DNA of 64,000 nucleotides from Gammaproteobacteria bacterium (GCA_029882215.1 JAOULC010000015.1:1399-65398); one strand, 5' to 3'. Counted from the stretch's first letter, positions 6,404-26,628 are shown. The notes: a model not told the origin generated them from the letters alone. Program-made: numbers and translations.

Positions 6404-7387
6404 CTACACAGTCTGATAGTACAGATTCTGTGGATGATTGGCCTGTGCAAAGAAGAACCAGCGCTCAAAAATCAGACCAATAAACTGAACGACAAAAGCA
6501 GCCACTAATAGCATAGTATCAGCAGTGCCTAGCCCAGCAATCAGTAAAATAACCGGTAGCGGGAATACCAGTACCAGGAAGATATATTTCACAGATTTTA
6601 TAAACGCAGCCGTTTTGCCGTGGAAGTACTCACGAGTATTGTAAGACCCGCCCTGCATACCCATGGATTTCTGCTGAATCTGGTTGTGACGAACACCAAT
6701 CGCTGTCTTCATTGAAGACTTATGTTTGATGCGTGAGTTGCGATATAAACTTGCCAGGCGCGTCACCAATACAACAACCGTCAGCACAACAGCCCAGATA
6801 GCAAAGAACTTGGTCAACTCAGGTGCATTATAAAAACTACTGAACCCGGCAGCACAGGTAAACCCTGAAGCCAGACCAAATAAGGCATAGTTAATCACAG
6901 TTAATGGTGTTGCCCATTCCTGTAAAAACTTAATGCATGCGTAAATCATACCGGTGCAGATAAACAGTATAAAGGCAGCAACCATTGCCAGACTTCCGGC
7001 AACAATCAGACTGTAACTGAAGTGGTTACCACTAGTATCACTGTAAATCACAGCATCTAGACCAAATAAGTGCATCACACCGTAGATGAAAATCATCAGC
7101 ATCATGAAAGGCAGTGCAATCACTTCACGTGACAACCACGAAGTTCGCCACTGACTTGCTGCGCGCCATGCACGCTCAGGATGCCCGAGGTGAAAAACAG
7201 ATGCAATCAGACCAGTCACTAAAAACACTAATGCCAGTACACTACCCATACCAAAGAAACTGGTATCAGACATTGAAGGCAATAAATTCAGTTCGCTATA
7301 AGCCTGAGCTGAAAATAACGCCAAAAACAAACCCTGACCGGTTCCGATCAAAGTTGTTAAAAATACTACTGAAAACGCAGGATGCAT
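6404..7387 (-). CDS. soeC: NrfD/PsrC-type polytopic membrane anchor subunit of the molybdoenzyme (SoeC-like)
   Basis: 327 aa with about 8-10 hydrophobic helices. It is the third gene after the catalytic and FeS subunits. The size fits my recollection of SoeC. Confidence 0.6.
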   Translation of the reverse strand: MHPAFSVVFLTTLIGTGQGLFLALFSAQAYSELNLLPSMSDTSFFGMGSVLALVFLVTGLIASVFHLGHPERAWRAASQWRTSWLSREVIALPFMMLMIFIYGVMHLFGLDAVIYSDTSGNHFSYSLIVAGSLAMVAAFILFICTGMIYACIKFLQEWATPLTVINYALFGLASGFTCAAGFSSFYNAPELTKFFAIWAVVLTVVVLVTRLASLYRNSRIKHKSSMKTAIGVRHNQIQQKSMGMQGGSYNTREYFHGKTAAFIKSVKYIFLVLVFPLPVILLIAGLGTADTMLLVAAFVVQFIGLIFERWFFFAQANHPQNLYYQTV

Positions 7388-7439
7388 AGCATTACTCCTG
7401 AGATTAAAAATTATGTTGAATCATTTATATTTAAATAAG

Positions 7440-7599
7440 CGACTCAACTACAAAAACCTAAATCACGTTCGATTGAAGTGAGAGATTTTGTTCGCTGGGT
7501 AGGCGTTGACTGATTTGGAAAGCAGAGTGTGCAACAGCACATGAGCATTTCAAAATCAAGCGACAACACCGCCAGCGGACAAAAGATCCGCCTCAAAGA
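7440..7599. repeat. Intergenic repeat-like element inside the soeB-soeC spacer
   Basis: The 212-bp noncoding gap (7388-7599) lies inside an otherwise tightly packed operon. It contains a short inverted repeat (gtgtgcaacagcacat) and a 'tcaaaatcaag' motif (revcomp cttgattttga), resembling the ttgattttga plus hairpin arrangement at 55561-55635. Confidence 0.35.
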
Positions 7600-8325
7600 T
7601 TACCAGCTGGTTGAGTCATCAAGAGTCGGTGCATCAACCGGATCCACTGAATGTTCTTTATTCAGAGGATTATCCGCACGCTGCAATTCATCTTCATGAT
7701 AATGCAGCTTGGTCTTACGACGCGGCAGATAATGGTTCGACGGATTCGTACCCCATTCAGGCATCAGCTGATAACCCGCGTTTTCGCGAATCGCAATCGA
7801 TACTTCTGACTCTGAATCATGAACATCACCAAACAGACGTGCGCTGGTCGGACATGACATAACACAGGCCGGTTTACGTTCATTTTCCGGTAACGACTCG
7901 TCATAAATACGATCAACACATAAAGTACATTTTTTCATGACTTTCTGATGTTCATCAAATTCACGTGCGCCGTAAGGACAAGCCCATGAACAATATTTAC
8001 AACCGATACATTTGTCGTAGTTAACTAAAACAATACCGTCTTCTTCACGCTTGTAGCTTGCGCCTGTCGGACAAACCGGAACACAAGGTGCATCTTCACA
8101 ATGCAGGCAGGACTTAGGAAAATGCAGGGTTTCCGTTTTCGGGAAAGTGCCAATTTCATAAGTCTGTACGCGGTTAAAGAAAGTACCTGTTGGGTCTTTA
8201 TCGTACGGATTGTCATCTGACATCGCACCGGCAGGACCCGACGTATTCCACTCTTTACAAGACGTTACACAAGCGTGGCAACCTACACAAACATTTAAAT
8301 CAATAACAAGGGCTAACTGTGTCAT
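7600..8325 (-). CDS. soeB: 4Fe-4S ferredoxin-type iron-sulfur subunit of the molybdoenzyme (SoeB-like)
   Basis: 241 aa with multiple CxxCxxCxxxC clusters ('CVGCHACVTSC', 'CLHCEDAPCVPVC', 'CIGCKYCSWAC', 'CTLCVDR'). Its start abuts the soeA stop (TAAATG). Confidence 0.7.
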   Translation of the reverse strand: MTQLALVIDLNVCVGCHACVTSCKEWNTSGPAGAMSDDNPYDKDPTGTFFNRVQTYEIGTFPKTETLHFPKSCLHCEDAPCVPVCPTGASYKREEDGIVLVNYDKCIGCKYCSWACPYGAREFDEHQKVMKKCTLCVDRIYDESLPENERKPACVMSCPTSARLFGDVHDSESEVSIAIRENAGYQLMPEWGTNPSNHYLPRRKTKLHYHEDELQRADNPLNKEHSVDPVDAPTLDDSTSW

Positions 8326-11646: not shown

Positions 11647-12648
11647 ATGAATATGAAACAGCTCACCGATCCCAAACTCATCGACCAGTTCGGACGCACC
11701 ATCGAATATCTGCGACTTTCAGTCACCGATCGCTGTGACCTGCGCTGTACATATTGCATGCCGAAAGGTTTTGATGATTACGAAGATGCCGCAAACTCAC
11801 TGACCAATGCTGAGATCGAACGAGTGGTAAAAGCGTTCACCGAATTAGGCACCAAACGAATTCGACTCACCGGTGGTGAACCACTGATCCGCAAAGGCAT
11901 TGCCGAGTTGTCCCATAATCTGGCAGCACTACCCGGCCTCGAAGACTTATCGCTCAGCACCAATGCCACTCGCATGGCCAAATACGCTGATAGCTTAAAA
12001 GCCAGCGGCATTCAACGACTCAATGTCAGCCTCGACACATTAGACCCCGACAAATTCAAACGCCTGACCGGTGGCAAGCTCTCAAAAGTCATCGATGGTT
12101 TAATGGCGGCTAAAAAAGCCGGCTTCAAACCGATCAAAATCAACATGGTGGTAATGAAAGGCGTAAACGATGATGACGTTGAAGATATACTCAGTTTTTG
12201 TATTGAACACGGCTTCACCCTGCGCTTTATCGAAACCATGCCAATGGGTGATACCGGTCGCGATGCACAAAGCCAGTACATCGATCTAAAAACCATCAAA
12301 CAACGCTTAGCCGAAAAATTCGACCTGATTCCCGGCGTGATGCCTGGCGGTGGCCCGGCGCGTTACATGAATGTCGCCGACACCGACATCAATATTGGTT
12401 TTATCACCCCCATATCTCAGCATTTTTGCGATACCTGCAACCGCGTTCGTTTATCAGTGGATGGTACGATATATACCTGTCTTGGCCAGGAACACAATGT
12501 AGCTCTACGCCCCTTGTTACGTGCCGGCTGCACAGATGACGAACTGAAAGTTGCCATCATCAAAGCGATTAACCTGAAACCCGAGAAACACGAGTTTAAT
12601 GAGAAACCTGAGAAGCTGGTAAGATTTATGTCGATGACAGGAGGCTAG
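11647..12648 (+). CDS. moaA: GTP 3',8-cyclase MoaA (molybdenum cofactor biosynthesis, radical SAM)
   Basis: 333 aa. It has the radical-SAM motif 'CDLRCTYCMP', a C-terminal second cluster 'CDTCNRVRLSVDGTIYTCL', and a terminal GG. Confidence 0.93.
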   Translation: MNMKQLTDPKLIDQFGRTIEYLRLSVTDRCDLRCTYCMPKGFDDYEDAANSLTNAEIERVVKAFTELGTKRIRLTGGEPLIRKGIAELSHNLAALPGLEDLSLSTNATRMAKYADSLKASGIQRLNVSLDTLDPDKFKRLTGGKLSKVIDGLMAAKKAGFKPIKINMVVMKGVNDDDVEDILSFCIEHGFTLRFIETMPMGDTGRDAQSQYIDLKTIKQRLAEKFDLIPGVMPGGGPARYMNVADTDINIGFITPISQHFCDTCNRVRLSVDGTIYTCLGQEHNVALRPLLRAGCTDDELKVAIIKAINLKPEKHEFNEKPEKLVRFMSMTGG

Positions 12649-12757: not shown

Positions 12758-13582
12758 ATGGCCCGAACAACCATCGACACCTGGAACCCCGAATTCTTAC
12801 TGCTTTCACCAATCTTCGATTCAATTCAAGAAGTCGCGCAGCCTTTCACTCAGCTTAAACAATGGCCAACGCTGCAACAGTTTGCAGATGAATTTTCTAA
12901 ACGCGGCATTCAATCATATAACGGATCACCAGTCCATCCTGTAGCACAAGGTGAAGCACCGGAAAAATTCGAAGATCATTATGAATCCCGCATCTATCTA
13001 AAAGGTGAACTGCAAACCCGACTGGATAACTGGCACGACCTCTTCAATGCCACAGCCTGGCTGCAATTCCCGAAAACAAAATCAGCCCTCAACGCACTTC
13101 ATTTTGAAAATTCAAAAACCAGAGAAGCGGGAACAAACCGAAGTCCTCTTGAAAATGCCATTACCTTATTTGACGAATGTGGCGCAATAATTGTGGCCGA
13201 TGATGAAAAACTTCTGGAGATGATTCGCAATCATCAGTGGAAAGAAATTTTTCTGGACAATAAAGAAGCCTGGCAAAAACATATTCAATGCTTTGTGTTT
13301 GGCCACGCCATGCATGAAAAAGCACTGACACTCTATCTCGGCATGACCACGCATTGCATACTGCTTAAAAAAGAAGACGATTTTTTCCAGCAAGACTACC
13401 CGGCTCAATTAGAAAAGCTGGATACTGAAACTGCCAATATCTGGATAGATAAAAAGATCAATAAAACAAAAGACCTTCAGCCTGTACCCATACTGGGCAT
13501 CCCAGCCTGGTACAAGCAACAGACCGAAGACTTCTACGCCAATAAAGACTACTTCAGATCACTAAGAAATAAGCCGGACTAA
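12758..13582 (+). CDS. Conserved hypothetical protein, probably DUF3025 family
   Basis: 274 aa and soluble. The blocks 'LFDECGAIIV' and 'CFVFGHAMHEKAL' resemble DUF3025 proteins as I remember them. Confidence 0.55.
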   Translation: MARTTIDTWNPEFLLLSPIFDSIQEVAQPFTQLKQWPTLQQFADEFSKRGIQSYNGSPVHPVAQGEAPEKFEDHYESRIYLKGELQTRLDNWHDLFNATAWLQFPKTKSALNALHFENSKTREAGTNRSPLENAITLFDECGAIIVADDEKLLEMIRNHQWKEIFLDNKEAWQKHIQCFVFGHAMHEKALTLYLGMTTHCILLKKEDDFFQQDYPAQLEKLDTETANIWIDKKINKTKDLQPVPILGIPAWYKQQTEDFYANKDYFRSLRNKPD

Positions 13583-13595
13583 GTCCGGCTTATTT
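13567..13595. terminator. Bidirectional rho-independent terminator between convergent genes
   Basis: aaataagccggac-taa-gtccggcttattt has a perfect stem flanked by A and T runs. It overlaps the stop codon of the DUF3025-like gene and lies 5 nt from the stop of the 1402-aa gene. Confidence 0.8.
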
Positions 13596-13599
13596 TGTT

Positions 13600-16500
13600 T
13601 TACTGAACAGTAATATCGAAGGTTTCGATCACCACACCGCCACGGGTATAGCCCAATTTTTTCGTAGTAGCATCAATATTCGTAAAGTCTATCTGATACA
13701 GGCCGTTCGACAACCAGCTTGAGGTATCATTTTCAAGATACCTTTCCATTCCAATAACCCCCCGATGTTGATACGAATCATAACAGCTACATGCCGCGTT
13801 CCACTGCATCCCGGTTCCCGACACAATATACAATTTGCCGTTAATTAAACCTGCCTCACCAAAGCGCACCGGGGTTGTAGAAGCTGTTAATGACGACCAT
13901 GTATTTAGCACGGGATCATAGACCTCTGCACGACTAGAGGCATAAGTGTTAGGATAGCTTGCAGTTGTTTCAATACCGAAGGTATATAGTTTGTTATTGA
14001 TTACTACAGCCTGATCACCGTCTCGAGCGCTCAGCATATTCGCTTTTAAAGTCCACTGGTTTGCCACTGGGTCATATACCTGCATTGTGTTGTAGTTCAC
14101 TCGCCCTGAACAAGACATACAGGAATCTCCGCCACCATATAGGTATGCCTTACCTCCCATAACTATCAGCGTAGCCTCATAAAGACTTGCACCTAGTCGA
14201 GATGCAACCGGTGTCATATTATCGTTAACAGTATCGTATTTATAAACACTCGTATTAGTTTCATTCACCAAATATATATCTGTTCCAATATTGGACACAT
14301 AGCCTGACCATAATGCAGCAGAACCAGCCACCTGGCTCGCCGGCACTGTAGCTGTTTTAGATACGGTATCAAATGCCTCTATGTCAGCCTCCGCACTAGA
14401 TGCCGAGAAATCATCAGCAGAAGTATATGCAGTCCCTCCTGCCAAATAGATTTTCGTACCGATAACAATAGCTGTTGATCCATCCCAGAAGTATGTCATC
14501 GCCGCTGAATATGTCGATACCGCATACGAGACCGGGTCGATTTCATAGACAGTATTTGACTTACCTCCAAGAACATAAAGCTTACCGCCCGCCTCAACAA
14601 ATGAATATCCGTAACTGTAATTAAAAGGCATTGATGTAATCGTCCACTGGTCCGTCACAGGATCATAAACATCTAGTGTTGTTGAGTATGCAACAACTCC
14701 CCCCTCATTCAGAATATAGACTTTGCCATTATAGGTAAGACTTATATTTGCATTATTTACAACCGTCCTCTGTGACAACGATTCATTCCATAGCAGCTTT
14801 CCATCCACCTGATCAACATCACCTACACGAATACCTTTAACATTATCGGTCGTAGTGGGTACTGCCACTTTCATTGCAAGCGAACCACCAGCACTTACGG
14901 AATTTGAATTAAGTAATGCCGCATGAACATCAATGTATATATCTGTACTATTCTGAGCAACACCGTTATACGAACTATCAATTGTCTCGATATACGATCC
15001 GACATCGGCATACACAGGCGTAAAGTTTACCGTATCACCAGCCACACCAACAAAACTTGTTGAACTGTTGGTGCTATAGATAGAACCCACCTGTTCACTA
15101 CTCATAGTTGATATCGCTGCATCATTCGCAACCATAGCAATAACCGAAGGCGTGGCCACAATATCCGCAGCACGTGTCTGATAAGTCACATCAAACACAT
15201 TACCACCCACGGTTATCGACACCGTCAGCTGTTCGTTGTAATTCACTGAACTGCTTACTCCGACTTCAACCAGGTCATCACCTGTTACCGTCTGGCATAA
15301 TTGCCCTGAGTTAGCCGAGTTTACATAGACCGTACCCGTCGAGGTACAGACCTCGGTTGTTTCACCGGAATCTATATAGGAAGAAACATCAACCAGGTGA
15401 GATGAAGATGTCTTGAGGTCAACCGAATTCAGCGCGGTCGTGTTATAGCTGAAGCTACGCGTTGTCATCGTAATATCAAATGATGCTCCGCCAAGTGAAA
15501 CAGTGTTAATGACATGTGCTGAAAAGTTCGGTGCCGTTGTCATCTTAACTTCAACAAAATTATCCCCGGTCACATTCTGACAACTCACTGCCGTATCAAC
15601 AGTATCTACCACCAGAGTAGCATTTGTGACACACAAGTTAGCCGAATCACTCAGGTCCAGCACGGAAGAAATATCAGTAACATAAACCGAGTTTAGATTC
15701 AGCCCAGACTGTGCAAAGCCTGCTGTGCTTTTTGTAAAATTTTTGTTTGTTAACGTGTAATCAAAACTAACACCACCCAGTGAAACCGTGTTTGTAGTAA
15801 CCTCACCATAATTCACTGATGAAACTGTTTTAACGCCAACAGTATTAGTACCTGTTACCGCCTGACATAGTGACAGGGTATCAACATAATCTACAACGAG
15901 TGATCCGGAACTAACACACAAATCAACGCTGTCATTAAGATCAAGAACAGATGAAACATCAACAGTGTATTCCCGATTCAAGTCTGTATTATTAACAGAT
16001 AAGCCAGCCACATTCTTAGTAAAAGTCTTGTTATTCACAGTATATTGCTGGGCATATGCCCCAGCAGCCAGGTGTGCAATCACTTGAGCCTGATAATCCC
16101 TAGCTGAAGTCAATTCTACTGCAACAGTATCACTAAAGCCGACGATTGCTGTTGACACCGCCTGCACAACACCATTCAGAACCAGATTTCCGCCAGTCAC
16201 GGTGACGCTAATCGTTTCACCTTCATATAAAAACTCTGCTGCGCTTAATGTTGTAGAGCGATAAGTTGTATTCAGGTCAGCACCGGATATTGTCTCATTA
16301 AGATTTGCATTCAATGCCACCTGCTCTGAACTCTGATCAATCGCAAAATAATCCAGATCACCTACGTGTAAATAGGCTACTTCTGCCGCACCCAGCGCCA
16401 TCGTTGTTGCAACGGCTTCATCGTTATTTGGTTCAAATGCAATGGGATTATTAAAATCAGCTGTTGAAATACTCGGCGTATCAATACCTATACTGTAAGC

Positions 16501-17808
16501 CGTTTCAGTTGCAATATCGGCATTTGATAACACAACAAACATTTCGGTAGCAGGATCTACCGGCACATTAATCGTACTGTTTGTTGTATTGAATGGTATT
16601 AACTTATTACCTGCGATTATCACATAACCTTTAACTGTCGAGACATCCGCTGTCAGGTTTATCGGCATGGAACGGCGATAAACTGTGATATCAAAACTAT
16701 CAGTCCATACATTTCCATACACATCGCGAATATCCGTATTAATAGTGACAATACGTTTCGACGTTTTTAATGCATTAAAACTGAATGTTACCGGAATATC
16801 TTTATAAGTACCGGCAGGCACTGTACCCAGTGTAATCGTTGGATTAAAACTATTCAGATAAGGATCAACCATTGTGACATCGTAGGCCAGACCAGTACCC
16901 TCATTTGTTCCAGTATTATGCATACGGACAACCCCGCTGTAGGTTGTGCCATCCGCGTAGGCAAATTCCTGATTTAAAATCAGCTCAGTCTTGAAATTAT
17001 AGCCGTTATTATCTAAGGAAAAATTCCCAAGATCTGCCGTTGCACCCGTAATACTAACCGACGAGTTAAAAGTACCGCCATTGCCATCATTTCCACTGAT
17101 AGCATAAACACCGGATGGCAGTGAATTATCAGCAAATGAACCATCAACGCTTGTAGTGGCTGTCGCTGTCACCGAACTATCATTAATATTAGTTAAGATA
17201 ACACCGATACCACCGATACCTGCGAATGCCTTTTGTCCCGGCTTATGTGCACTTTTGCTGGTTGCATCACCCAGTACCTTTCCATTAACGGCCGTATTGG
17301 CAACTGATGCCCGCAACAAATGACGTGTGCCAGTTTTTAGAATGTTACTACTGAGTTTTGTATATGACGGTAACACCGTTGAAGATAGCAGTTCAATCTC
17401 TTCTGCCGTATCGATATAAACCCATTTACCGAACAGATCACTAGTAACATTACCGGTCACTGTCAGACTGAAACTCACACTGACGCCACCGGTGTTAACC
17501 ACAAATACTTCACTGCCCGATGCTGTAGCCGTTATCTGGCCATTCGCAACCGCCGCAATCGAGCTGCTAAACACACTCCAGTCTATCTGATTTGTAATAT
17601 CAGCAGTAGATCCATCGCTATAACTGCCCGTTACAGTCAGTTGCTGTGTACCACCCACGGCCAGGATCGCTGATGCCGGCGTTACGTCAAGAGATATCAG
17701 TGTTATGCCGGATCCGGTACCACCTGTCCCGCCTGTATCACCACCGCCTCCGCCACCACAGGCACTAACAGTCAAAATTAGAAACAGGATTGCCAATAAC
17801 TTCTTCAT
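13600..17808 (-). CDS. Giant lipoprotein: BIG2 Ig-like domain, CarboxypepD_reg-like domain, CARDB-like domain, PPC ('EPNN') domain, tandem Cys-pair repeats, C-terminal Kelch-like beta-propeller
   Basis: 1402 aa. Signal peptide plus lipobox 'LTVSAC', followed by a Gly-rich linker, with GGAG 6 nt before the ATG. The BIG2-like segment is 'LDVTPASAILAVGGTQQLTVTGSYSDGS'. The PPC-like segment is 'FEPNNDEAVATT...YLHVGDLDYFAI'. There are six to seven Kelch-type blades ('GKLYVLGG', 'VYDPVANQWT', 'NNKLYTFG', 'NGKLYIVSG'). No catalytic motif was recognised. Confidence 0.85.
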   Translation of the reverse strand: MKKLLAILFLILTVSACGGGGGGDTGGTGGTGSGITLISLDVTPASAILAVGGTQQLTVTGSYSDGSTADITNQIDWSVFSSSIAAVANGQITATASGSEVFVVNTGGVSVSFSLTVTGNVTSDLFGKWVYIDTAEEIELLSSTVLPSYTKLSSNILKTGTRHLLRASVANTAVNGKVLGDATSKSAHKPGQKAFAGIGGIGVILTNINDSSVTATATTSVDGSFADNSLPSGVYAISGNDGNGGTFNSSVSITGATADLGNFSLDNNGYNFKTELILNQEFAYADGTTYSGVVRMHNTGTNEGTGLAYDVTMVDPYLNSFNPTITLGTVPAGTYKDIPVTFSFNALKTSKRIVTINTDIRDVYGNVWTDSFDITVYRRSMPINLTADVSTVKGYVIIAGNKLIPFNTTNSTINVPVDPATEMFVVLSNADIATETAYSIGIDTPSISTADFNNPIAFEPNNDEAVATTMALGAAEVAYLHVGDLDYFAIDQSSEQVALNANLNETISGADLNTTYRSTTLSAAEFLYEGETISVTVTGGNLVLNGVVQAVSTAIVGFSDTVAVELTSARDYQAQVIAHLAAGAYAQQYTVNNKTFTKNVAGLSVNNTDLNREYTVDVSSVLDLNDSVDLCVSSGSLVVDYVDTLSLCQAVTGTNTVGVKTVSSVNYGEVTTNTVSLGGVSFDYTLTNKNFTKSTAGFAQSGLNLNSVYVTDISSVLDLSDSANLCVTNATLVVDTVDTAVSCQNVTGDNFVEVKMTTAPNFSAHVINTVSLGGASFDITMTTRSFSYNTTALNSVDLKTSSSHLVDVSSYIDSGETTEVCTSTGTVYVNSANSGQLCQTVTGDDLVEVGVSSSVNYNEQLTVSITVGGNVFDVTYQTRAADIVATPSVIAMVANDAAISTMSSEQVGSIYSTNSSTSFVGVAGDTVNFTPVYADVGSYIETIDSSYNGVAQNSTDIYIDVHAALLNSNSVSAGGSLAMKVAVPTTTDNVKGIRVGDVDQVDGKLLWNESLSQRTVVNNANISLTYNGKVYILNEGGVVAYSTTLDVYDPVTDQWTITSMPFNYSYGYSFVEAGGKLYVLGGKSNTVYEIDPVSYAVSTYSAAMTYFWDGSTAIVIGTKIYLAGGTAYTSADDFSASSAEADIEAFDTVSKTATVPASQVAGSAALWSGYVSNIGTDIYLVNETNTSVYKYDTVNDNMTPVASRLGASLYEATLIVMGGKAYLYGGGDSCMSCSGRVNYNTMQVYDPVANQWTLKANMLSARDGDQAVVINNKLYTFGIETTASYPNTYASSRAEVYDPVLNTWSSLTASTTPVRFGEAGLINGKLYIVSGTGMQWNAACSCYDSYQHRGVIGMERYLENDTSSWLSNGLYQIDFTNIDATTKKLGYTRGGVVIETFDITVQ
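15170..16035 (-). repeat. Three tandem ~95-aa repeats (each with two Cys) inside the 1402-aa lipoprotein, preceded by a degenerate Cys-less copy
   Basis: The units begin 'TFTKNVAGLSVNNTDLNREYTVDVSSVLDLNDSVDLCVSSGSLVVDYVDTLSLCQAVTGTN...', 'NFTKSTAGFAQSGLNLNSVYVTDISSVLDLSDSANLCVTNATLVVDTVDTAVSCQNVTGDN...' and 'SFSYNTTALNSVDLKTSSSHLVDVSSYIDSGETTEVCTSTGTVYVNSANSGQLCQTVTGDD...'. They span about aa 592-880. Confidence 0.8.
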
Positions 17809-17830
17809 TTTACTCTCCAGTTTTATCTGT

Positions 17831-17900
17831 TTAGAAACGGCTTTCTAACCCAAATGAAATCTTATTTTTTAAATTATTTTTCGCTACTACAGACTGTTTT
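17831..17900 (-). pseudogene. Relic of the 3' end of a second copy of the 323-aa OMP gene
   Basis: 17831-17870 matches the 3' end of the intact OMP gene (20343-20382) at 34 of 40 nt. The relic translates to '..VVAKNNLKNKISFGLESRF*' against '..DVANNKTETETKNIITFGLESRF*' in the intact gene. The frame breaks (TAA) further upstream. Confidence 0.7.
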
Positions 17901-18049
17901 ACAAAGCTGTTTTTTTCTTATTTTTCATTCGCAACAGCTTTATCTTTAGTCAACATGTCAATCTGGTTTTATTTTTGGCATAAAATACGCCCAAAGGATG
18001 TTCATGCTCATGTACATCAGACCCCATCGCTCCTTCTAACACTAAGTGT

Positions 18050-20287
18050 TTATTTCAACTGTATAACTTCGATGCCCAAATCTGTTGAAACGTAAGCATA
18101 ATTCCCTGCGACTGTTATTCCTCTTGGATATCCCGCCAGTAAAAGTTGTGCCACCTGACCATCAATATTTGGTTTTTTCACATTGCTTATTGTTAAACCA
18201 CGAATCGTATTGTAAGGTCCTGCAGAAAACAGGTAACCGCCATCAATTGCCATTTCCCTTGAATAATGAAAATTGTTATTAACATTCAGAGCAGGCGTTA
18301 TACTTGCTGGCGTACTGATATCAAAACTATGTGTTGATAAACGTGTATCCGCAGCAAATAACCGGTCACCATAAACAACCAGGTCAGCAATGCCACTCTG
18401 TAGTACATCAGTGCTTCCAAAAGAGGACTCTGTTGTGCTCGTAATAATAGCTGGCGCCACAGGATCAGTAACATCAATAACCGTTATCATTCCCCCTGTT
18501 GCATTGTGTGAAACAAATACCGTATCCAATCTCGACACAACACTCCTAATGTTCGAGGTCGCACCAGGTATTAAAACAGAACCTTGAATGGAAGGCGTTG
18601 CAGAATCACTAACATCAACAACGTTTAAATATGTACCTGTTAGATCCATCGAGCCAACGAAAGCTGTTGTTCCTTCTAACCATAGAGCAAAAGGTTCTGT
18701 AAGCGCTACACTACCTGTCGTTAATGGAGTTGCTGGCGTTGAGACATCCATTATGTATAACCGATCACTAAGCTGACTAGTAACATAAGCTCTATTCAGA
18801 AATAATTTGATTTGATTATAATTACTTCCAGATGTTGAAACTAATACAGGACTATCTGGTGTGGTTATGTCATAAATATTCAAACCAAAGCTACCTACTG
18901 CATATAAATAATTCCCTTCTGTAGCTATATCTAATATGCCAGTCTGTGCAATCTCTGACAATTTACGGCTATCAAATGGTTGTACTGCATTAGTAAACTG
19001 TAAATTATAATAATCAATATCATCAGTATGTAAATACGAAAGCTTTGACTCACCCATTGTTAAGGTCACAGCATCAACTGTTGTGTTATTTGGCTCATCA
19101 ATTCCTGTCTGTGTAAAACCTTCCAGACTATAATCTTCAATCGAAGACCCAAACGCCACAGCATAAGCGGCTTCACTTTGGACATCACTATTCGCAAAAA
19201 CTATCTCAAGATTTTGCCCATCAACCCAGGGCACCTTAACCTCCCCCGCACCGCCACCTAATTGCTTTAAAGTACGACCTGGAGTGACTAAAACTCCGTT
19301 ACCTCTGGCATCAAAAGTGACTGGTATATCTTTACTTAATGGCAATAGTACTTTATCAGTCCAAACTTGATTGTTGATATCTGTTATTTGAATATTGATT
19401 TGCACATTTTTGTTAGCAGAAGGCCTGTTAAATGAAATAGTAAATGGAATGGTTATTGAATCACCCTGTGCTACTCCTCCTACAACTGGTGTAACATCAA
19501 GCACCTTAATATCAGGATCTATACTGCTAACGTTGAAACTCAGTCCTGATGCATCCTGATTGCCAATATTCTTAACGCTCAGTTGACGCGAATATTCAAT
19601 CGGTATCTGTCCTGCAAGGCTGCCAAAATATAAATACTCATTAACATCATTGCTTACAATTTCGGTTTTAAAATTATATAAACCACCAGATACCAAAGTC
19701 AGGTTACCTACATCCGTAACATTACTGGCAATATCAATTTCGACTTCTACTGTCGATGACGTCGTTACATCAGTTGCAATGGCATTGTAACGACCACTAG
19801 GCAACGAAGCTGAGAAGTTACCCGCACTATCCGACACAACGGCAACAGACACCGAGCTGTCTGCTACATTTGTTAGCAAAAGCTCTACTCCTGCTATTGT
19901 TTTCTGAGCAATTCCGCTTTTAGGTATCACTGTTCCTTTTGCGCCAGCGGTTACTACTTCATTCAGTACACCCGTCACAGCTACATTATCAATTCCAGCT
20001 CTAACAGCAAAAAATTCCACTGTCATATCCTGAAGCTTTATTAGATTACTATCCACTTCTGTAACAGTAAATATTGTTTCTGATCCTAACCAAATTTTGT
20101 TGCCATTTCGAACATCCTGCCATTGCCCCTGTAGATAAAGCGGAACTGGATTTGTATCTAAACCAGGCACATAACCACCCACATCTCCGCTGCTACTGCT
20201 ACTGCTACTGCTACTGCTACTGCTACCGCCACCACCGCAAGCACTCAGTGCTAATGCAACGAATAAAACTGATATCATTTTAAACAT
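18050..20287 (-). CDS. Large lipoprotein: CarboxypepD_reg-like domain, CARDB-like domain, PPC ('EPNN') domain, C-terminal LVIVD-repeat beta-propeller
   Basis: The ORF is open from 20302. The ATG at 20287 has GGAG 6 nt upstream. The lipobox 'LALSAC' is followed by a Gly4-Ser12 linker. LVIVD-type repeats include 'LNIYDITTPDSP', 'LYIMDVSTPATP', 'LNVVDVSDSATP', 'ITVIDVTDPVAP' and 'HSFDISTPAS'. Confidence 0.85.
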   Translation of the reverse strand: MFKMISVLFVALALSACGGGGSSSSSSSSSSSSGDVGGYVPGLDTNPVPLYLQGQWQDVRNGNKIWLGSETIFTVTEVDSNLIKLQDMTVEFFAVRAGIDNVAVTGVLNEVVTAGAKGTVIPKSGIAQKTIAGVELLLTNVADSSVSVAVVSDSAGNFSASLPSGRYNAIATDVTTSSTVEVEIDIASNVTDVGNLTLVSGGLYNFKTEIVSNDVNEYLYFGSLAGQIPIEYSRQLSVKNIGNQDASGLSFNVSSIDPDIKVLDVTPVVGGVAQGDSITIPFTISFNRPSANKNVQINIQITDINNQVWTDKVLLPLSKDIPVTFDARGNGVLVTPGRTLKQLGGGAGEVKVPWVDGQNLEIVFANSDVQSEAAYAVAFGSSIEDYSLEGFTQTGIDEPNNTTVDAVTLTMGESKLSYLHTDDIDYYNLQFTNAVQPFDSRKLSEIAQTGILDIATEGNYLYAVGSFGLNIYDITTPDSPVLVSTSGSNYNQIKLFLNRAYVTSQLSDRLYIMDVSTPATPLTTGSVALTEPFALWLEGTTAFVGSMDLTGTYLNVVDVSDSATPSIQGSVLIPGATSNIRSVVSRLDTVFVSHNATGGMITVIDVTDPVAPAIITSTTESSFGSTDVLQSGIADLVVYGDRLFAADTRLSTHSFDISTPASITPALNVNNNFHYSREMAIDGGYLFSAGPYNTIRGLTISNVKKPNIDGQVAQLLLAGYPRGITVAGNYAYVSTDLGIEVIQLK
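20189..20224 (-). repeat. Simple-sequence repeat, (AGC/AGT)12, encoding the poly-Ser linker
   Basis: The plus strand reads gct gct act gct act gct act gct act gct act gct, a near-perfect hexanucleotide (gctact) array. It is in frame. Confidence 0.9.
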
Positions 20288-20342
20288 AATGTTCTCCAGC
20301 ATAGCTGTGTGTAGCCATTATCTATTAAGTGTTTAATTAAAA

Positions 20343-21314
20343 TTAGAAACGACTTTCTAAACCAAAGGTAATAATATTTTTTGTTTCTGTTTCTGTTTTG
20401 TTATTGGCAACATCGGTGACTTCAACGTCTTCCAATACAATACCCACCACCGGTTTTAAGTTACCACTCACCGGCTCATTAAAGATAAAACGCAAAGCCA
20501 TACGTGAGGTCGCCTGCTCAATATCAACTGTTTGATTATTAAAACCGTCTGCGGTTGCGTTCAGTGCCGCGATGTCATATTGCATTGGCAATAGCTCATA
20601 ATAATAACCAAAGCCAATATTCACGCTGCCACCGGTTTTATATTCGAGTTCTAAACTCAGGTCATAGGACAAGTCTTGTGAGTTTGTACTGCTACGCGTA
20701 CCGGCAGTAGGGATAAGGGGTATGAAACGTGTTTCCTGATCTACTGCAAGACTTGATGCGGGTGAAATAGATAATCCGGCACGGAAATTTATGCTTTTCC
20801 CGATACGGGTAAAGTCTGCAAAAACATTAGGCTTGGTGATGACCACATCGACCTGACTATCGAAGGCCACATACTCACCCGCCACAGCCGGATTAGGCAC
20901 ATAGGGATTTGGCATTTGAAAATAACCAAACTGCAACTGATCGATAGTGACCTGCTCAAAGTCTGCACCGACTGACCATTTGGTGCTCTCACTGCCTTTT
21001 TCAAGGGCTATCAGATTCAGACGCAAACGGTCTTCGCTGACACTGGTGCCGACTCGGCTATCGGTAAAACCCGGTATCGTCTCGTTTGAATCCGACTGTC
21101 TTGAGCGAAAACCAATACCTGAGCTCCAGCCATCACCCCAGTTAAAAGGAACAAAGGCTTCAGGTGCGGTCTTGCCATCTTCATCCAGGCCGAGATCGAC
21201 CTGAACCCGGTCCTCTGCCCAGCCAGACTCAGCGGCAACGGCTTGTGATGGTAGTAAAGTAATAAAAGCGAAGACTGCAAAAAATGCAGCTGGAGTAAGC
21301 CTATTGGCGAGCAT
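20343..21314 (-). CDS. Outer-membrane beta-barrel protein, unidentified family, first gene of the OMP-lipoprotein cassette
   Basis: 323 aa with signal peptide 'LTPAAFFAVFAFITLLPSQAVAA'. It has alternating amphipathic strands and a C-terminal '...FGLESRF'. It lies 40-55 nt upstream of the LVIVD lipoprotein gene on the same strand. Confidence 0.75.
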   Translation of the reverse strand: MLANRLTPAAFFAVFAFITLLPSQAVAAESGWAEDRVQVDLGLDEDGKTAPEAFVPFNWGDGWSSGIGFRSRQSDSNETIPGFTDSRVGTSVSEDRLRLNLIALEKGSESTKWSVGADFEQVTIDQLQFGYFQMPNPYVPNPAVAGEYVAFDSQVDVVITKPNVFADFTRIGKSINFRAGLSISPASSLAVDQETRFIPLIPTAGTRSSTNSQDLSYDLSLELEYKTGGSVNIGFGYYYELLPMQYDIAALNATADGFNNQTVDIEQATSRMALRFIFNEPVSGNLKPVVGIVLEDVEVTDVANNKTETETKNIITFGLESRF

Positions 21315-21962
21315 GAGATGTGTTCCCCTTAATTATCACGTTCCATGTGTTTGATTTTGATCGACAAAAAAACGCGAAGTTAATTTACTCAATACTTTAT
21401 GTTATAAAAAAAAAGTGTCATCACCCATATGGTGTATGCCGGCCAAATAATTTAACAAACCTACAACATATTTTAAAAAACGTGATCCACATCAAGCCGA
21501 TGCTAAATAGATCCCATACATCCTTCTCACCACGGCTCAATAAGCTTGACACCTTATTTTGTGCGAACTGATCTGAAAGAAAATAGTATTCTGAAATTTT
21601 ATTCCGTATCAAAGGGACACAATCAGCACACGATTAGGAATTTTATAGAAAGTTATTACAGCGGAAAGCCATTAGAAAAGAACACAATCCCTGTGCTCAA
21701 GGACAACAAAACAACAACCTGTATGAGTCTTAATCATGTCATTACTATAAACCACCACCCCGCGGATTCCATCACCCAAATGAGGTAAATGTAGCAAATA
21801 AATATGTATTATCTGTCAATATTTAACTTTACATCATTGCTTTATCACTGTGCTTTGCAGCTTTCATTAACGGCCAGGTTATCAAGTTCAGGCAAGCGTC
21901 TTAGATGCATAATACACACTGCGACCAGTGATTATGGTTTTGAATATTGCATGAGGCCGGCT

Positions 21963-23822
21963 TTAGACTTTTAACAACTCATCAAGAATTTTCGCCCAGT
22001 GCGTATAGAACATGTAATGCCCCTGGCCTTCACAGATATGGTATCTGGTTTCTGTTATATGCTCTTCAAAGCGCCTGCAAAGAACTAACGGCACGTGATG
22101 ATCACTATCACCATGCCATAAAGTCACCGGCACTTTAATATTATCCGGTTTAAACCCCCAGTCATGCATCAGCTGAATGATTTCTTTTGACGTAGCTTTG
22201 CCGCCCTGACGAAAACCTTCACGCAGTGAATTAAAATGTTCTCTTTTAAAATCATCACTGCACATTATTCGCTGATCTGCAGCAGCTACCTTTTCACTCA
22301 GCTGAGTAAAAAAAGCATCCGGATCATTCAAAATACCCTTAACCAGCACCGAGCTTAGCAAACTATAAACCTTGGGCAAATACCGAGCCAGCTTTGTATT
22401 CATTTTATACAAAGGGATCATTTGCCCGAAATCTTTAGCTGATATTGCCGGCATACCGGCACTGATAATGAATACTTTTTTAATTCTTTCAGGGGCTTCA
22501 TGCGCACAGGCCAGTGCATACTGCCCACCCATGGCATAACCTGTTAATGACACTTGCTCTATTTCCAGTGCATCAATCAGCTGTACAAAATCATTCGTCC
22601 ATTTTATATAACTTGCGGCAGGGTCCGGATCCGACATACCAAAGCCCGGGCGATCTATGTTAATCAGGCGAATTTTCTTTTGCTTACAAATCTCATCGGC
22701 ATTAAATGCAAGCTCCAGCCTGGACCCCACTACACTGTGACAGTGCACAACAAGCTCACCGCAAGGATCGCCGTATTCCTGATAAGCCAGATGCCGGCCA
22801 TCATCTAACTCTATGGTTTGGTATAAGTGCTGCTGCAAGCTGTTTTTTGACAATACCCCTTTGCGCTGACCGGCAGCAACATCCGGAATAGCATTAACAA
22901 ACGCGCCCATACCATTAAACACCAGACTAACAAGTTCTGCCTGCCGGCTGGTTTCTGTTTTTCTCAGGATGGCTTTTACCTGCGAGCGAACAGTATGCTG
23001 GGACACACTAAACGCTTCTGATATTTCTTTTATATTCATTCCACGGACAAGCTGCCCTGTGATCTGAATTTCTTTTTCAGTGAGATGGTATATTTCTGCC
23101 AGCTCCGGGGGTAATGAAAACGGCTGTGATTTTCGCTGGGCAATAAAGATAGCAACCGATGCACTCTTTGCTGCACCATTGTGTTTAACCGGTGCAAGAA
23201 ACAGCATCAGGTTATTTGATGTGAGTTTTTGATTTAACGATAACGCCTGTCCGCGTGTTGTGGCCGGGTCATGTTTTGACATGGCTTCAACCGCATTCAG
23301 CAGTTTTTGCTGATTAGCAACATCAGCATCAAGACAACCGTCTTTAATTCGCAGTCCTGTTCCCGAAGTCAAAATATCATCAGCCAGTGTATTACACTCG
23401 ATTACTCTGGCCGCCTCATCAACCAGTACGAGGGCAATTGGCAACCTGTCCAGTAATGACAAAACAACTTCATGCTGATCACCCATATCCACCAGGCGCT
23501 TGGCAATCTTTATCGCTCTGGCAAAGTGCCTAATCAGGATGTCATTGACATCCGCCATGTCATACTTGCTGCTATCGTTGGCCGCAACACTGACATCAGT
23601 AAGCGACCTTAATGCTTCAGAAATAGTGCTACGTGGTGGTGCACCACTAACGGCTGCAATCTCAGGTATAACCGCCAGTAGCTGAGATTCTCCGCTGGCG
23701 CTGCTCTGATCTATATGCGCCACAAATTCAGCCAGTGAATTGAGTAAGTCAGTCCAGCGGGACGGTTCAATCGCCGCTTCATAAATGAGTTCGATTAGCG
23801 GATCTATACTTGTATGCTTCAT
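21963..23822 (-). CDS. LuxR/GerE-family transcriptional regulator with N-terminal PAS-like region and C-terminal alpha/beta-hydrolase domain (nucleophile Ser replaced by Ala)
   Basis: 619 aa. The HTH is 'LTEKEIQITGQLVRGMNIKEISEAFSVSQHTVRSQVKAILRKT'. The hydrolase-fold elbow reads 'LTGYAMGG' (GCC Ala at 22533-22535) instead of G-x-S-x-G. The acid and His positions appear retained ('WHGDSDHHVP', 'GQGHYMF'). Confidence 0.8.
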   Translation of the reverse strand: MKHTSIDPLIELIYEAAIEPSRWTDLLNSLAEFVAHIDQSSASGESQLLAVIPEIAAVSGAPPRSTISEALRSLTDVSVAANDSSKYDMADVNDILIRHFARAIKIAKRLVDMGDQHEVVLSLLDRLPIALVLVDEAARVIECNTLADDILTSGTGLRIKDGCLDADVANQQKLLNAVEAMSKHDPATTRGQALSLNQKLTSNNLMLFLAPVKHNGAAKSASVAIFIAQRKSQPFSLPPELAEIYHLTEKEIQITGQLVRGMNIKEISEAFSVSQHTVRSQVKAILRKTETSRQAELVSLVFNGMGAFVNAIPDVAAGQRKGVLSKNSLQQHLYQTIELDDGRHLAYQEYGDPCGELVVHCHSVVGSRLELAFNADEICKQKKIRLINIDRPGFGMSDPDPAASYIKWTNDFVQLIDALEIEQVSLTGYAMGGQYALACAHEAPERIKKVFIISAGMPAISAKDFGQMIPLYKMNTKLARYLPKVYSLLSSVLVKGILNDPDAFFTQLSEKVAAADQRIMCSDDFKREHFNSLREGFRQGGKATSKEIIQLMHDWGFKPDNIKVPVTLWHGDSDHHVPLVLCRRFEEHITETRYHICEGQGHYMFYTHWAKILDELLKV

Positions 23823-24026
23823 TAATTATTTATTATTACAATGTCAGGACAATCCTATATATCCACCAGTTTATCTAAAATAGTTATATTTACCAGCGGT
23901 TTCATGTTAGGGCTTTATTTTAGTGATACGGTTCATATTTTTAAAGCCGGAGCACGGGCGCCCATAAGCATAAGCCCTGACATGAACACGCTGTTAACAG
24001 CTTGAAAACAGGCCTGTATTTTTAGC

Positions 24027-25337
24027 TCAGAACAGATGCCTGGAGTTCAATATGATGTTTGAATCCCCTGTATCCGTCGCATAACCAATATCAAGCCTGA
24101 TATTCACTTTAACAAAGGCCGCTACTTTCCAGCGAAATGCCAAGCCAATCGTCGTATGCAAGCCCTTAAAATCAATATCTTTTGCCCTGTCATAGGCATT
24201 GCCCACATCAAGCAGCACTCCATAACGATAAGCGGGATTATTACTAAACGGAACCAGGTACTCAATATTCATTAACACCATTGCATTACCATTATATAAG
24301 CCTCTTTCTGAGTACCCACGAAGCTCACTACCACCCAATGAAAAAACATTATCACCCAGATAATCGCCGTCACTCGCGCCCAGCTGCATCTGTACATTCA
24401 GGTTGTTCATGGGGTGTGATTTAAGCCGGTAATAACTCCGGTAAAAAATCAAATGCTTTGTAAAACGATCCTCCTCATTAAACAAAATACGATTTGTATT
24501 GAGAATATAGCCAAAATCTTTTCCTCTGCGGTTAAACAAGTACTCATTTATTTTTTGATAACCAAAACGCAGCTGCAGAAAATTCCCCTGTAAATCCGCC
24601 AGCGATACATCGCCGTCATACAATGCACTATTATTGCGCTCCTCTCTGTATAAACCGGTCCCCAGATACCAGCCGCTACTGCGGTTATCAAGATGACGCC
24701 AGCGATCGACATTAAAGCCTATCTTTTTTTCTTGGCGAAACTGTGGATCTGCAGCGCTATACTCAATGACACTCTCTCTGTACTCCGTAAAAAAATTAAG
24801 TGTGTAGGGAGAACCATCTATTCTCGGCATCGTGTATTCCAGGCTTTGCCTAATATCCTGTACACCGAGCGTTTCGCCATATTCTCTGAGCTTTAAGCGC
24901 AGGCTTTGATTGGTACCGGCTATATTATCCCAGTAGGCACGTACACCGTAGTGAAGCGCTTTATCCACTTCATCAACCCTTATTTCTGGCAGAACAAACA
25001 GGTAATGTTTTTCTGTTACCCGGATAACCAGACGGACATTATTTTTACTGATGCTGTCATAAACAGAATATTTGACATCACGAAACAAATGCAAATCCAT
25101 GATTGCCTGTACGTCTTCTTTTACTGTTGCGATGTCCAGCTCATCCCCTACCTGAGATCGCATTTCCTGCAGCAGAACAAATGCCTGTGTATTTTTATTG
25201 CCGATAAATTCAATGCTAGCAATAACCGACGCCATAGCCTGAGTTGCCGCTAACAACAGAAAAATAAAAGCAAGCAGTCTTAGCTTAAGTATTTGAATGA
25301 TCACTCCGTTACCGCGAACTCTTTCACCAGTCAGCAC
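24027..25337 (-). CDS. Omp85/surface antigen (D15) family beta-barrel protein with a single POTRA-like domain
   Basis: 436 aa with a GTG start and signal peptide '...LLAFIFLLLAATQAMA'. A POTRA-like segment 'IASIEFIGNKNTQAFVLLQEMRSQVGDELDIATVKEDVQAIMDLHLFRDV' is followed by a barrel ending '...SNIILNSRHLF'. No TpsA-like partner gene is adjacent. Confidence 0.7.
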   Translation of the reverse strand: MLTGERVRGNGVIIQILKLRLLAFIFLLLAATQAMASVIASIEFIGNKNTQAFVLLQEMRSQVGDELDIATVKEDVQAIMDLHLFRDVKYSVYDSISKNNVRLVIRVTEKHYLFVLPEIRVDEVDKALHYGVRAYWDNIAGTNQSLRLKLREYGETLGVQDIRQSLEYTMPRIDGSPYTLNFFTEYRESVIEYSAADPQFRQEKKIGFNVDRWRHLDNRSSGWYLGTGLYREERNNSALYDGDVSLADLQGNFLQLRFGYQKINEYLFNRRGKDFGYILNTNRILFNEEDRFTKHLIFYRSYYRLKSHPMNNLNVQMQLGASDGDYLGDNVFSLGGSELRGYSERGLYNGNAMVLMNIEYLVPFSNNPAYRYGVLLDVGNAYDRAKDIDFKGLHTTIGLAFRWKVAAFVKVNIRLDIGYATDTGDSNIILNSRHLF

Positions 25338-25626
25338 ACTCCTGAAAGGTTACACATCAGTATTATTATTTTTTAATCACTATCGCCAAAATAATCATAA
25401 AATGCAAATCACAGTCATTTTTTATCTACCTCTATCATAGAGCCGTCGCTTATTGCTTTTGAGCATGATGAGCACGGCCCTTAGCCGATAAATAGCGGCT
25501 TTTTATCCTGATCTTCTTGTCATCTGAGGCACAAAACGTCATTATGGTCAATCAAGTATAATAATAATGTATTTTCGTGAGCCCGCCTGTGGTTCATAAG
25601 AAAAACAGCGGGAAACAGGACCTTAA

Positions 25627-26628
25627 ATGAACATTAACAGAGTCTGTATTTTGGGTGGTACCGGATTTGTAGGTAGCACGCTCGTCTGTAAGCTAGCTGC
25701 CATGGGAATTAAAACCCGACTTATTAGCCGACACCCTGAGCGCCACCGCGAGCTACTGGTTTTACCGAACGTCGAAATCGTAGAAGCCGACATCACCGAG
25801 TTTAACCGGCTGTCTTATTATTTACATGATGTAGATGCTGTGATTAATCTGGTTGGTATCCTCAATGACAACACTCTTGATGGCAGTGGCTTTCGAAAAA
25901 TCCATATCGATCTGCCCAAGTTAATTGTTCAGGCCTGTCAAAAAAATAATATCAAGCGCCTGTTACAGATGAGCGCATTACATGCCGATGCCGGCACCGC
26001 CCCCAGCCACTATTTACGCTCAAAAGGTGAAGGCGAAAACCATTTACATATCTTTAGTGACAAAGGCATACAGGTCACCACTTTCCGTCCTTCTGTTATT
26101 TTTGGCCCTGACGATGACTTTTTTAACCGCTTTGCAAAACTACTAAAAGTGACACCCTTCATCTGCCCGATACCTAGAGCCAATAGCCGCTTTGCACCCG
26201 CCTATGTTGGTGATGTTGCTGACGCTATGATCAAACACCTGCTCGACCCGAACAGCAACGGTCAGCGAGTCGATCTGTGCGGACCACACAGCTATAGCAT
26301 GCTGGAGATTATGGAATACACCGCAGCGGTTTTAGGGATTAAACGTAAGTTTATTGCACTACCAGACTCGCTTGCACGGTTTATGGCACATATGTCCGAT
26401 ATGGCCAACAATATCCCGATCATCACACCCGCCATGAATATGTTAATTCCGGGTTTTAAAGAGTCACGTTTTTCGATTGATAATTACCGTTCATTATTAG
26501 TTGACAGCACCTGCGACGATGCCGAAACACTAAAAACAGCGATTGAAGATATCGTCCCCAAATACCTTGGTAATCAGAACGAACAATACCACTACGACAG
26601 GTTCCGCAGCCGTTCAACCGGCAAATAA
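25627..26628 (+). CDS. NAD(P)-binding atypical SDR / epimerase-family protein (NDUFA9-like)
   Basis: 333 aa with the Rossmann motif 'ILGGTGFVGSTL'. The overall layout resembles complex-I 39-kDa-like bacterial SDRs. Confidence 0.7.
   Translation: MNINRVCILGGTGFVGSTLVCKLAAMGIKTRLISRHPERHRELLVLPNVEIVEADITEFNRLSYYLHDVDAVINLVGILNDNTLDGSGFRKIHIDLPKLIVQACQKNNIKRLLQMSALHADAGTAPSHYLRSKGEGENHLHIFSDKGIQVTTFRPSVIFGPDDDFFNRFAKLLKVTPFICPIPRANSRFAPAYVGDVADAMIKHLLDPNSNGQRVDLCGPHSYSMLEIMEYTAAVLGIKRKFIALPDSLARFMAHMSDMANNIPIITPAMNMLIPGFKESRFSIDNYRSLLVDSTCDDAETLKTAIEDIVPKYLGNQNEQYHYDRFRSRSTGK

Follow-up and report, generated by a model that had tools for sequence, protein, structure and literature searches.

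Introduction

To our knowledge, the delivery of lipoproteins to the surface of Gram-negative bacteria, and their retention there, is understood in few systems: Slam and the type 11 secretion system (T11SS), the substrates of the type 2 secretion system (T2SS), the Bacteroidota export signal with BAM, and LptDE-assisted routes. Slam/T11SS has been described with the surface lipoproteins TbpB, fHbp and HpuA and with hemophores (PMC9090332; PMC5449769; PMC12282271). In Bacteroidota, BamG (with BamH) and PorV are FadL-like barrels of 14 strands that bind surface lipoproteins, and in the pair Bt1926-Bt1927 a small barrel putatively anchors an S-layer lipoprotein or assists its secretion; in such complexes the lipoprotein packs onto its barrel with its lipid anchor or its loops (PMC12578637). 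Here we describe a locus at positions 13600-25337 of a 64,000-nucleotide stretch of DNA from a Gammaproteobacteria bacterium (GCA_029882215.1; JAOULC010000015.1:1399-65398), the whole of which is called the window below, in which the gene for a 323-residue outer-membrane protein (OMP) lies beside the gene for a large lipoprotein.

A sequence-only reading of the window had grouped five minus-strand genes into one cell-surface island, and had proposed that a dedicated OMP-lipoprotein cassette lies within it. No description of such a pair was found in the literature, apart from a passing remark on Tenderiales. The remark concerns ALP54212.1/ALP54213.1, in which an LVIVD-repeat protein is encoded beside a conserved unknown protein with a signal peptide, and a role in attachment is suggested (bioRxiv 10.1101/2022.05.06.490989). 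This pair may be the same cassette, and we regard it as a candidate only.

Conserved linkage of the OMP and lipoprotein genes

The OMP gene (window 20343-21314, minus strand), the core component of the locus, is followed on the same strand by the gene for a 750-residue LVIVD lipoprotein (lipoprotein 1, 18050-20302) and, further downstream, by that for a 1402-residue Kelch lipoprotein (lipoprotein 2, 13600-17808). We examined 24 distinct OMP-family loci, with duplicates collapsed. In 18 of the 24 the OMP gene lies beside a lipoprotein gene on the same strand, at a spacing of -4 to ~80 bp. A module shared by these lipoproteins (see below) was confirmed with a hidden Markov model (HMM) in 15 of the 18 adjacent loci; in the remaining three the partner is cut by a contig end, yet a lipobox with a tether or an LVIVD- or Kelch-like fragment is visible. 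Two further loci, both from Candidatus (Ca.) Thiovulum, have the module lipoprotein and OMP genes on the same strand but 2-7 kb apart, and four are uninformative because of contig ends. None of the 24 loci has both flanks long enough and yet lacks a partner. The proposed dedicated cassette thereby passed the neighborhood test that had been set for it in advance, with 18 adjacent loci and none that contradicts it.

The linkage is kept from 84% OMP identity down to a profile E value of ~1e-14, which corresponds to ~20-25% identity to the window OMP, and it spans Gamma- and Betaproteobacteria, Campylobacterota (Ca. Thiovulum) and metagenome-assembled genomes (MAGs) of Deferribacteraceae. The order of the two genes varies, the lipoprotein gene leading in 11 loci and the OMP gene in seven, and some pairs overlap and are translationally coupled. 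The expectation that a lipoprotein with a PPC domain and a propeller always lies immediately downstream therefore held for the neighboring lipoprotein, but neither for PPC and propeller as constant parts, the payloads being interchangeable, nor for a fixed downstream order. The conserved unit is two genes, barrel and lipoprotein, and not five, because the genes for the Omp85-family protein and the LuxR-alpha/beta-hydrolase protein are syntenic in the closest relative only (locus L004) and not in the other loci that can be judged; to this extent the five-gene unit of the sequence-only reading has to be given up. Judged from gene neighborhoods, the partnership between the OMP and the lipoprotein is well supported.

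Two of the loci carry additional genes. In the Ca. Thiovulum karukerense MAG (L024, 2970-9857), four tandem two-gene units lie between the module lipoprotein and OMP genes; each encodes a secreted protein of ~230-280 residues starting MKKTVLSLVATATL..., followed by a protein of ~200-255 residues, and a fifth secreted open reading frame (ORF) is also inserted. In a distant cassette (L030, 6071-6670), a third gene after the OMP and module-lipoprotein genes encodes a small OMP_b-brl barrel of the 8-stranded type.

The OMP family

The 323-residue OMP has a type-I signal peptide and the C-terminus FGLESRF. It gave no match in Pfam (E<=0.1) or NCBIfam, and its profile gave no meaningful match among PDB sequences. 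Close homologues are few, 12 among 5.8 billion clusters and all metagenomic, and a profile search of 1.84 billion representatives collected 144 clusters (50% identity), nearly all of ~300-330 residues. Those with a named source come from MAGs, assigned to Gammaproteobacteria, Betaproteobacteria, Ca. Thiovulum karukerense, a second member of the Campylobacterota, and Deferribacteraceae. A word-indexed profile search added a single protein, from a Deferribacteraceae MAG. No member was found in species-representative genomes scanned with an alignment of the close family, and neither the OMP nor the module was matched in a plasmid collection.

An AlphaFold2 model from an alignment of 60 homologues is a 14-stranded barrel with a mean predicted local distance difference test (pLDDT) score of 92.9 and a predicted template-modeling (pTM) score of 0.85; it supersedes an earlier model from 12 close homologues (pLDDT 63), which had given generic fold matches. 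Five strands are long (S4-S6 and S11-S12, of 21-24 residues) and four are short (S7-S10). The mature protein consists of the barrel only, with ~10 residues ahead of strand 1. A Foldseek comparison with the PDB gave best template-modeling (TM) scores of 0.46-0.49, a generic barrel likeness. The matches were autotransporter barrels (AaaA, EstA, NalP), FadL/TodX, the Bacteroidota protein BamG and OmpT/Pla, with CymA and OmpG also among the weak ones. The sequence-only reading had placed the small OMP in no family and had named structure prediction with Foldseek as the check; both the family searches and the fold comparison, with no TM above 0.49, agree with it.

Among 60 family members, 15 weakly match the generic model OMP_b-brl (PF13505) and none matches DUF560, Toluene_X or autotransporter models (E<=1). 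The C-terminal Phe is kept in 92% of the family, and signal peptide, amphipathic barrel and C-terminal aromatic residue are those of the generic outer-membrane beta-barrel superfamily (the OMP_b-brl/MBB clan). Given the confident AlphaFold2 barrel, the weak fold matches and the weak recognition of part of the family by OMP_b-brl, we conclude that the 323-residue protein is a true barrel of the outer membrane and that its family is undescribed.

A distant family member from a metagenome, P0154 (549 residues), has a lipobox and an N-terminal domain with the sequence HEFAH, a zinc-protease-like HExxH motif, fused to the barrel. Lipoprotein-barrel fusions therefore occur naturally.

The lipoproteins and their shared module

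The lipoboxes VSAC and LSAC, described in the sequence-only reading as followed by Gly/Ser linkers, can be read directly in both window proteins. In lipoprotein 1, LSAC precedes a Gly/Ser tether of ~19 residues, the module (residues 57-435, window 18998-20134) and a C-terminal LVIVD beta-propeller. In lipoprotein 2, VSAC precedes a Gly-rich tether of ~17 residues, a Big_2-like domain, the module (residues 125-495, window 16324-17436), repeats, and a C-terminal Kelch propeller. The residue at +2 is not Asp in either protein (VSAC-G, LSAC-G), in agreement with Lol sorting, where acylation is predicted from sequence. A lipobox of the pattern [LVI][ASTVI][GAS]C with a non-Asp residue at +2 is present in every complete linked partner, and all linked lipoproteins, which span 650-1860 residues, carry a low-complexity tether of 8-27 Gly, Ser, Asp or Pro residues directly after the Cys.

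The propellers are recognized by Pfam above the gathering scores (Kelch_1, 56.8 bits; Kelch_6, 49.0; LVIVD, 37.8). Of the other domain labels in the sequence-only reading, CarboxypepD_reg in lipoprotein 1 and Big_2 in lipoprotein 2 fall below the Pfam cut-off, the latter being borderline. PPC (PF04151) and CARDB (PF07705) found no HMM match at E<=0.1 in the full proteins or at E<=1 in 11 module sequences, and these two labels are dropped. Scans with Pfam and NCBIfam showed no enzymatic or catalytic family in either window lipoprotein, consistent with the earlier remark that neither has a catalytic motif. An assignment of the Kelch domain to YjhT-type mutarotases was rejected on its score, 32 bits where the cut-off is 256.

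Residues ~590-880 of lipoprotein 2, between the module and the Kelch propeller, form three tandem repeats of ~97 residues with two conserved Cys each, and have no Pfam match.

The module is shared by both window lipoproteins: residues 125-488 of the Kelch protein align to residues 57-432 of the LVIVD protein with 30% identity (BLASTP, E 3e-32). In iterative searches over the fetched loci it was found in most OMP-linked lipoproteins, with a length of ~370-440 residues. Within it, just the transthyretin-like (CarboxypepD_reg) part is weakly recognized by Pfam. Its profile has no relative among PDB sequences; in a search of metagenome proteins, 7 unnamed proteins were among the matches listed, and low-complexity words dominated the candidates. 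The module ends in a PPC-like motif of ~40 residues, EPNN...SYLH.GD.DYY, and several family members of ~660-680 residues end 4-5 residues past this motif. Its shortness and its position near the C-terminus mean that it is not a complete PPC domain. The module is a previously undescribed element, putatively of the multi-beta-sandwich type. The payloads that accompany it are LVIVD, Kelch, Lcl_C and Big_2, all of the binding or adhesin type.

A second flavor of the cassette is present in two loci, in which a divergent OMP paralogue ending in FGLEE (OMP2) is paired with lipoproteins that lack the module (L001, 3808-10428; L015, 2897-5712). The partner in L001 is a giant lipoprotein of 1864 residues with Big_5, cadherin-like and FG-GAP domains.

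Synteny and proposed cassette turnover

Locus L004, whose OMP is 69% identical to that of the window, has the window order of genes, namely glcD, epimerase, Omp85, an extra GNAT gene, LuxR-alpha/beta-hydrolase, a long leader, OMP, lipoprotein and Kelch-type lipoprotein. Omp85 and LuxR-alpha/beta-hydrolase genes are absent from the loci L002, L014, L006 and L030, which have enough flank, and the distant cassettes L002, L014 and L006 are located between rnt and nadB/rpoE.

In the window clade the locus ends in a conserved gene, that for the Kelch lipoprotein, with 63% identity in L004 and 70% in L001. The slot beside the OMP is variable: it holds the LVIVD gene in the window, and in L001, L004 and L015 a lipoprotein with another payload and ~28% module identity. 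Thus, OMPs that are 69-84% identical adjoin lipoproteins that differ in payload and have diverged this far in the module, and conserved OMPs with swapped partners fit a barrel that recognizes a generic feature.

The LVIVD gene stands apart in composition. Its G+C content at third codon positions (GC3) is 0.28, against 0.46 +/- 0.06, ~2.8 standard deviations under the other window genes, and it is the sole outlier. Its module is nearer to that of a Betaproteobacteria MAG (43%) and of L002 (42%) than to the sister genes in the same slot (28%). Together, these figures suggest that the LVIVD gene is itself a recent replacement, brought into the variable slot by cassette exchange.

Between the two lipoprotein genes, a second OMP gene has left its 3' end (17831-17869, minus strand), encoding KNKISFGLESRF*. 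Identity to the OMP C-terminus extends to 11 of 13 positions, stop included (tblastn), and the DNA matches the 3' end of the OMP gene at 22 of 24 nucleotides (blastn), so that the relic noted in the sequence-only reading is real, though short at 39 nucleotides. The relic and the GC3 outlier are the grounds for proposing cassette turnover, and they suggest that a cassette was replaced or inserted and that a redundant OMP copy was then lost. With the second barrel gene decayed to this remnant, one window barrel would now serve two paralogous lipoproteins.

The region as a whole was also considered as a horizontally acquired island, and this was rejected: GC3 is normal in all of the five genes but one, and the flank is shared with L004. 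A compositionally foreign region, for which a GC and codon check had been proposed, thus comes down to the LVIVD gene.

The leader, its palindromic box and the LuxR-pseudohydrolase

Upstream of the OMP gene lies a leader (21315-21962, minus strand) whose length of 648 bp and AT-richness were stated correctly in the sequence-only reading (36.7% GC against 44.5% in the window). Alignment with L004, L001 and L005 shows conserved blocks in it. In the sister loci a perfect 16-bp palindrome, TCACCCAAATGGGTGA, precedes all OMP, OMP2 and Kelch-lipoprotein genes, and with them all transcription units, in six copies (L001, 41-56, 3714-3729 and 10683-10698; L004, 6612-6627 and 10122-10137; L015, 2754-2769). 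The copy in the window leader (21772-21787) has three mismatches, and a half-site (21419-21431) abuts a -35-like hexamer ~105 nucleotides before the OMP start codon. Inverted repeats of this kind are binding sites for dimers of GerE/LuxR proteins. The palindrome is probably the operator of a dedicated, locus-specific regulator, and in this clade the adjacent LuxR-pseudohydrolase is a candidate for its binder.

The leader also contains a hairpin followed by a T-run (window 21680-21698, minus strand), which aligns in L004 and L001 and whose stem varies compensatorily among loci (CACA-GGGA-TGTG versus GTAC-AGGGAA-GTAC). An attenuator is one possible reading of this hairpin, the terminus of a short transcript another. 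The consensus RNA fold of the leader is weak, and a palindrome at the DNA level is the better reading of the conserved element. A comparison of window positions 13000-26000 with Rfam gave no match.

The regulator gene (21963-23822, minus strand) encodes 619 residues with a GerE/LuxR helix-turn-helix (GerE, 29.1 bits) and an alpha/beta-hydrolase fold (Abhydrolase_1, 55.5 bits). In the nucleophile elbow, GYAMG, the catalytic Ser is replaced by Ala, both in the window protein and in its 61%-identical L004 orthologue, while Asp and His are retained. The LuxR-pseudohydrolase named in the sequence-only reading is borne out in each of these parts. Because of the Ser to Ala exchange, the hydrolase domain would be a pseudoenzyme or sensor, and the conserved exchange suggests a ligand-sensing pseudoenzyme. 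The N-terminal ~240 residues of the protein are PAS-like by eye.

The Omp85 neighbor and the flanking genes

ORF listing of window 13600-25337 recovered the five minus-strand genes that the sequence-only reading had placed between plus-strand genes, at the same coordinates. The fifth gene (24027-25337, minus strand) encodes a 436-residue Omp85-family protein with a POTRA domain and a BamA-like C-terminal region. Its single POTRA scores 36.5 bits, above the cut-off, whereas BamA proper has five such domains, and the BamA model aligns to residues 38-407 with 75.6 bits against a cut-off of 297. The L004 orthologue matches POTRA and Omp85 (PF01103). By these tests the gene would encode a member of the Omp85 superfamily that is not BamA, TamA or TpsB. 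Omp85 as an obligatory component of the cassette is ruled out by synteny.

The plus-strand flanks carry MoaA and DUF3025 genes on one side and epimerase and GlcDEF genes on the other. Between the convergent DUF3025 and Kelch-lipoprotein genes, a hairpin with a 14-bp stem (13566-13596) is likely a bidirectional terminator that closes the unit. Adjoining moaA is a DmsABC-like molybdopterin oxidoreductase operon, with catalytic, 4Fe-4S and DmsC-anchor subunits (window 6404-11229, minus strand, and 11647-12648, plus strand).

Discussion

We favor, with moderate confidence, a cassette in which adhesin-like lipoproteins depend on the barrel as a partner for their display or anchoring at the cell surface. 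The barrel would be the dedicated outer-membrane partner of the lipoprotein, either bringing the Lol-delivered protein out to the surface or retaining it there, the contact likely lying in the tether/module region, and the conserved module would bear interchangeable adhesin-type payloads. In the window clade, the unit would probably answer to the adjacent LuxR-pseudohydrolase via the 16-bp palindromic operator. We infer the physical interaction, the surface exposure, the direction of transport and the identity of the operator-binding protein. Several observations argue for display or anchoring. The payloads, of the extracellular adhesin type, are hypervariable beside a conserved barrel; nothing but a lipid anchor and a tether is common to all partners; and one barrel appears to be enough for two lipoproteins. 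Precedents exist in Slam/T11SS, in Bacteroidota complexes of a barrel with a surface lipoprotein (PMC12578637), and in MtrB-MtrC. A bolder version is tentative and clearly less probable: the barrel could define a new class of translocons or anchors, phylogenetically widespread and acting on lipoproteins in trans. It would then correspond in function to Slam, or to an inverse autotransporter that has been "split", with the tether running through or beside the barrel, the module as recognition element or stalk, and the pseudohydrolase-LuxR protein controlling expression.

A number of points weigh against display or anchoring by the barrel. Gly-rich tethers are typical of surface lipoproteins exported by T2SS, such as PulA, SslE and MtrC, and the role of the barrel may therefore be limited to docking, with export of the lipoprotein taking a different path. 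The partners of OMP2 lack the module, which consequently is not a universal recognition element. The Ca. Thiovulum pair is separated by other genes, and the palindrome copies in the window are degenerate. All sequences are metagenomic or derived from MAGs, with many short contigs, and both the barrel-lipoprotein interaction and the surface exposure are predicted from the genes.

The same gene pair could instead serve ligand capture and uptake, where the surface lipoprotein would bind a substrate and hand it to the barrel, acting as a substrate-specific passive channel that follows SusCD/FadL logic without TonB. This would suit the 14 strands, shared with FadL/TodX, CymA and OmpG (all among the weak fold matches), the binding-type modules of the payloads, and the dedicated regulator with its ligand-sensor-like pseudohydrolase domain. 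However, the free exchange of payloads (LVIVD, Kelch, Lcl_C, cadherin/FG-GAP) beside barrels that are 69-84% identical is awkward for a substrate-specific channel, the cassettes are devoid of catabolic and inner-membrane transport genes, and the barrel has neither a hatch domain nor a FadL/Toluene_X signature; we consider such a role unlikely. More doubtful still is a complex that faces the periplasm, with the lipoprotein on the inner leaflet of the outer membrane binding the barrel as LptE binds LptD or BamB binds BamA, in a structural or biogenesis role and possibly together with Omp85. BamB is indeed a beta-propeller lipoprotein partner of an Omp85 protein, and both the window and L004 have an Omp85 gene close by. 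Most cassettes have no such gene, though, and their lipoproteins of 650-1860 residues carry modules of extracellular adhesins (Big_2, cadherin-like, FG-GAP, Lcl_C, Kelch, LVIVD), hypervariable in a way that the conserved accessory factors of biogenesis machines are not.

Finally, the barrel could be a general porin or structural OMP without a specific partner, co-regulated or hitch-hiking with genes for surface proteins. The interaction is deduced from gene linkage, and some family members do match the generic OMP_b-brl weakly. Yet the adjacency persists across several phyla and down to ~20-25% identity, through changes in gene order and including coupled overlaps, which is not expected in the absence of selection for co-function, and we hold this explanation to be very improbable.

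Dedicated pairs of a barrel and a lipoprotein are known; here both families are undescribed. The display or anchoring cassette is thus a testable candidate for another route of lipoproteins to the surface, or another anchoring principle, built on an unrelated barrel family and swappable adhesin payloads. As it comprises two genes and a barrel of 323 residues, it could be reconstituted in E. coli, and if the proposed function is true it could be adapted as a display scaffold. Two families missing from Pfam, NCBIfam and the PDB are now assigned a context, one that points to surface-attachment proteins in uncultured sulfur-oxidizing and electroactive bacteria (Thiovulum, possibly Tenderiales). 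The cassette is rare and known from uncultured bacteria only, and its function is one that we infer.

Comparison with known systems

A close parallel in logic is Slam/T11SS, whose dedicated outer-membrane barrel is likewise encoded beside its lipoprotein, can have several lipoproteins as cargo, and is 14-stranded as well. In contrast to Slam, the window OMP has no DUF560 and no N-terminal periplasmic TPR region and is a barrel-only protein of 323 residues, and the window lipoproteins end in Kelch or LVIVD propellers rather than in the TbpB-type C-terminal 8-stranded barrel that defines T11SS substrates, and share a different conserved module. The SusC/SusD arrangement differs as well: TonB_dep_Rec, Plug and SusD gave no matches, and a 14-stranded protein of 323 residues stands against a 22-stranded TonB-dependent barrel with a plug, whose lipoprotein is of the SusD-like TPR type.

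With the FadL/Toluene_X group, PorV and BamG included, the OMP has the strand count in common, but it has no Toluene_X match, leaves no room for a hatch, and reaches TM scores of 0.37-0.48 with FadL, TodX and BamG. The Bacteroidota complexes resemble the cassette in that a large surface lipoprotein has a barrel of small or medium size as its partner, and BamG chains are among the top fold matches. They differ in fold (TM 0.37-0.43), in their hosts, which for the cassette are Proteobacteria, Campylobacterota and Deferribacterota, and in the tether, which here is Gly-rich and not an acidic export signal.

Type V systems, both inverse autotransporters (intimin/invasin) and classical ones, are like the proposed cassette in having an anchor on the periplasmic side, a linker through the barrel and a large repetitive adhesin outside, although threading is hypothetical for the cassette. 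There, 12 strands are fused in cis, whereas here the barrel is separate and 14-stranded, with no Autotransporter or IAT_beta match and TM scores of 0.46-0.49. LptD-LptE, RcsF-OmpA/C/F and MtrB-MtrC also couple a lipoprotein to a specific barrel, and MtrC is a Gly-tethered surface lipoprotein docked on its barrel. They show no homology to the cassette, LptD and MtrB are 26-stranded, and the cassette has no cytochrome or LPS-transport context. By the features compared here, the cassette is distinct from Slam/T11SS, SusCD, FadL/PorV/BamG and type V systems, and its likeness to them is one of logic only.

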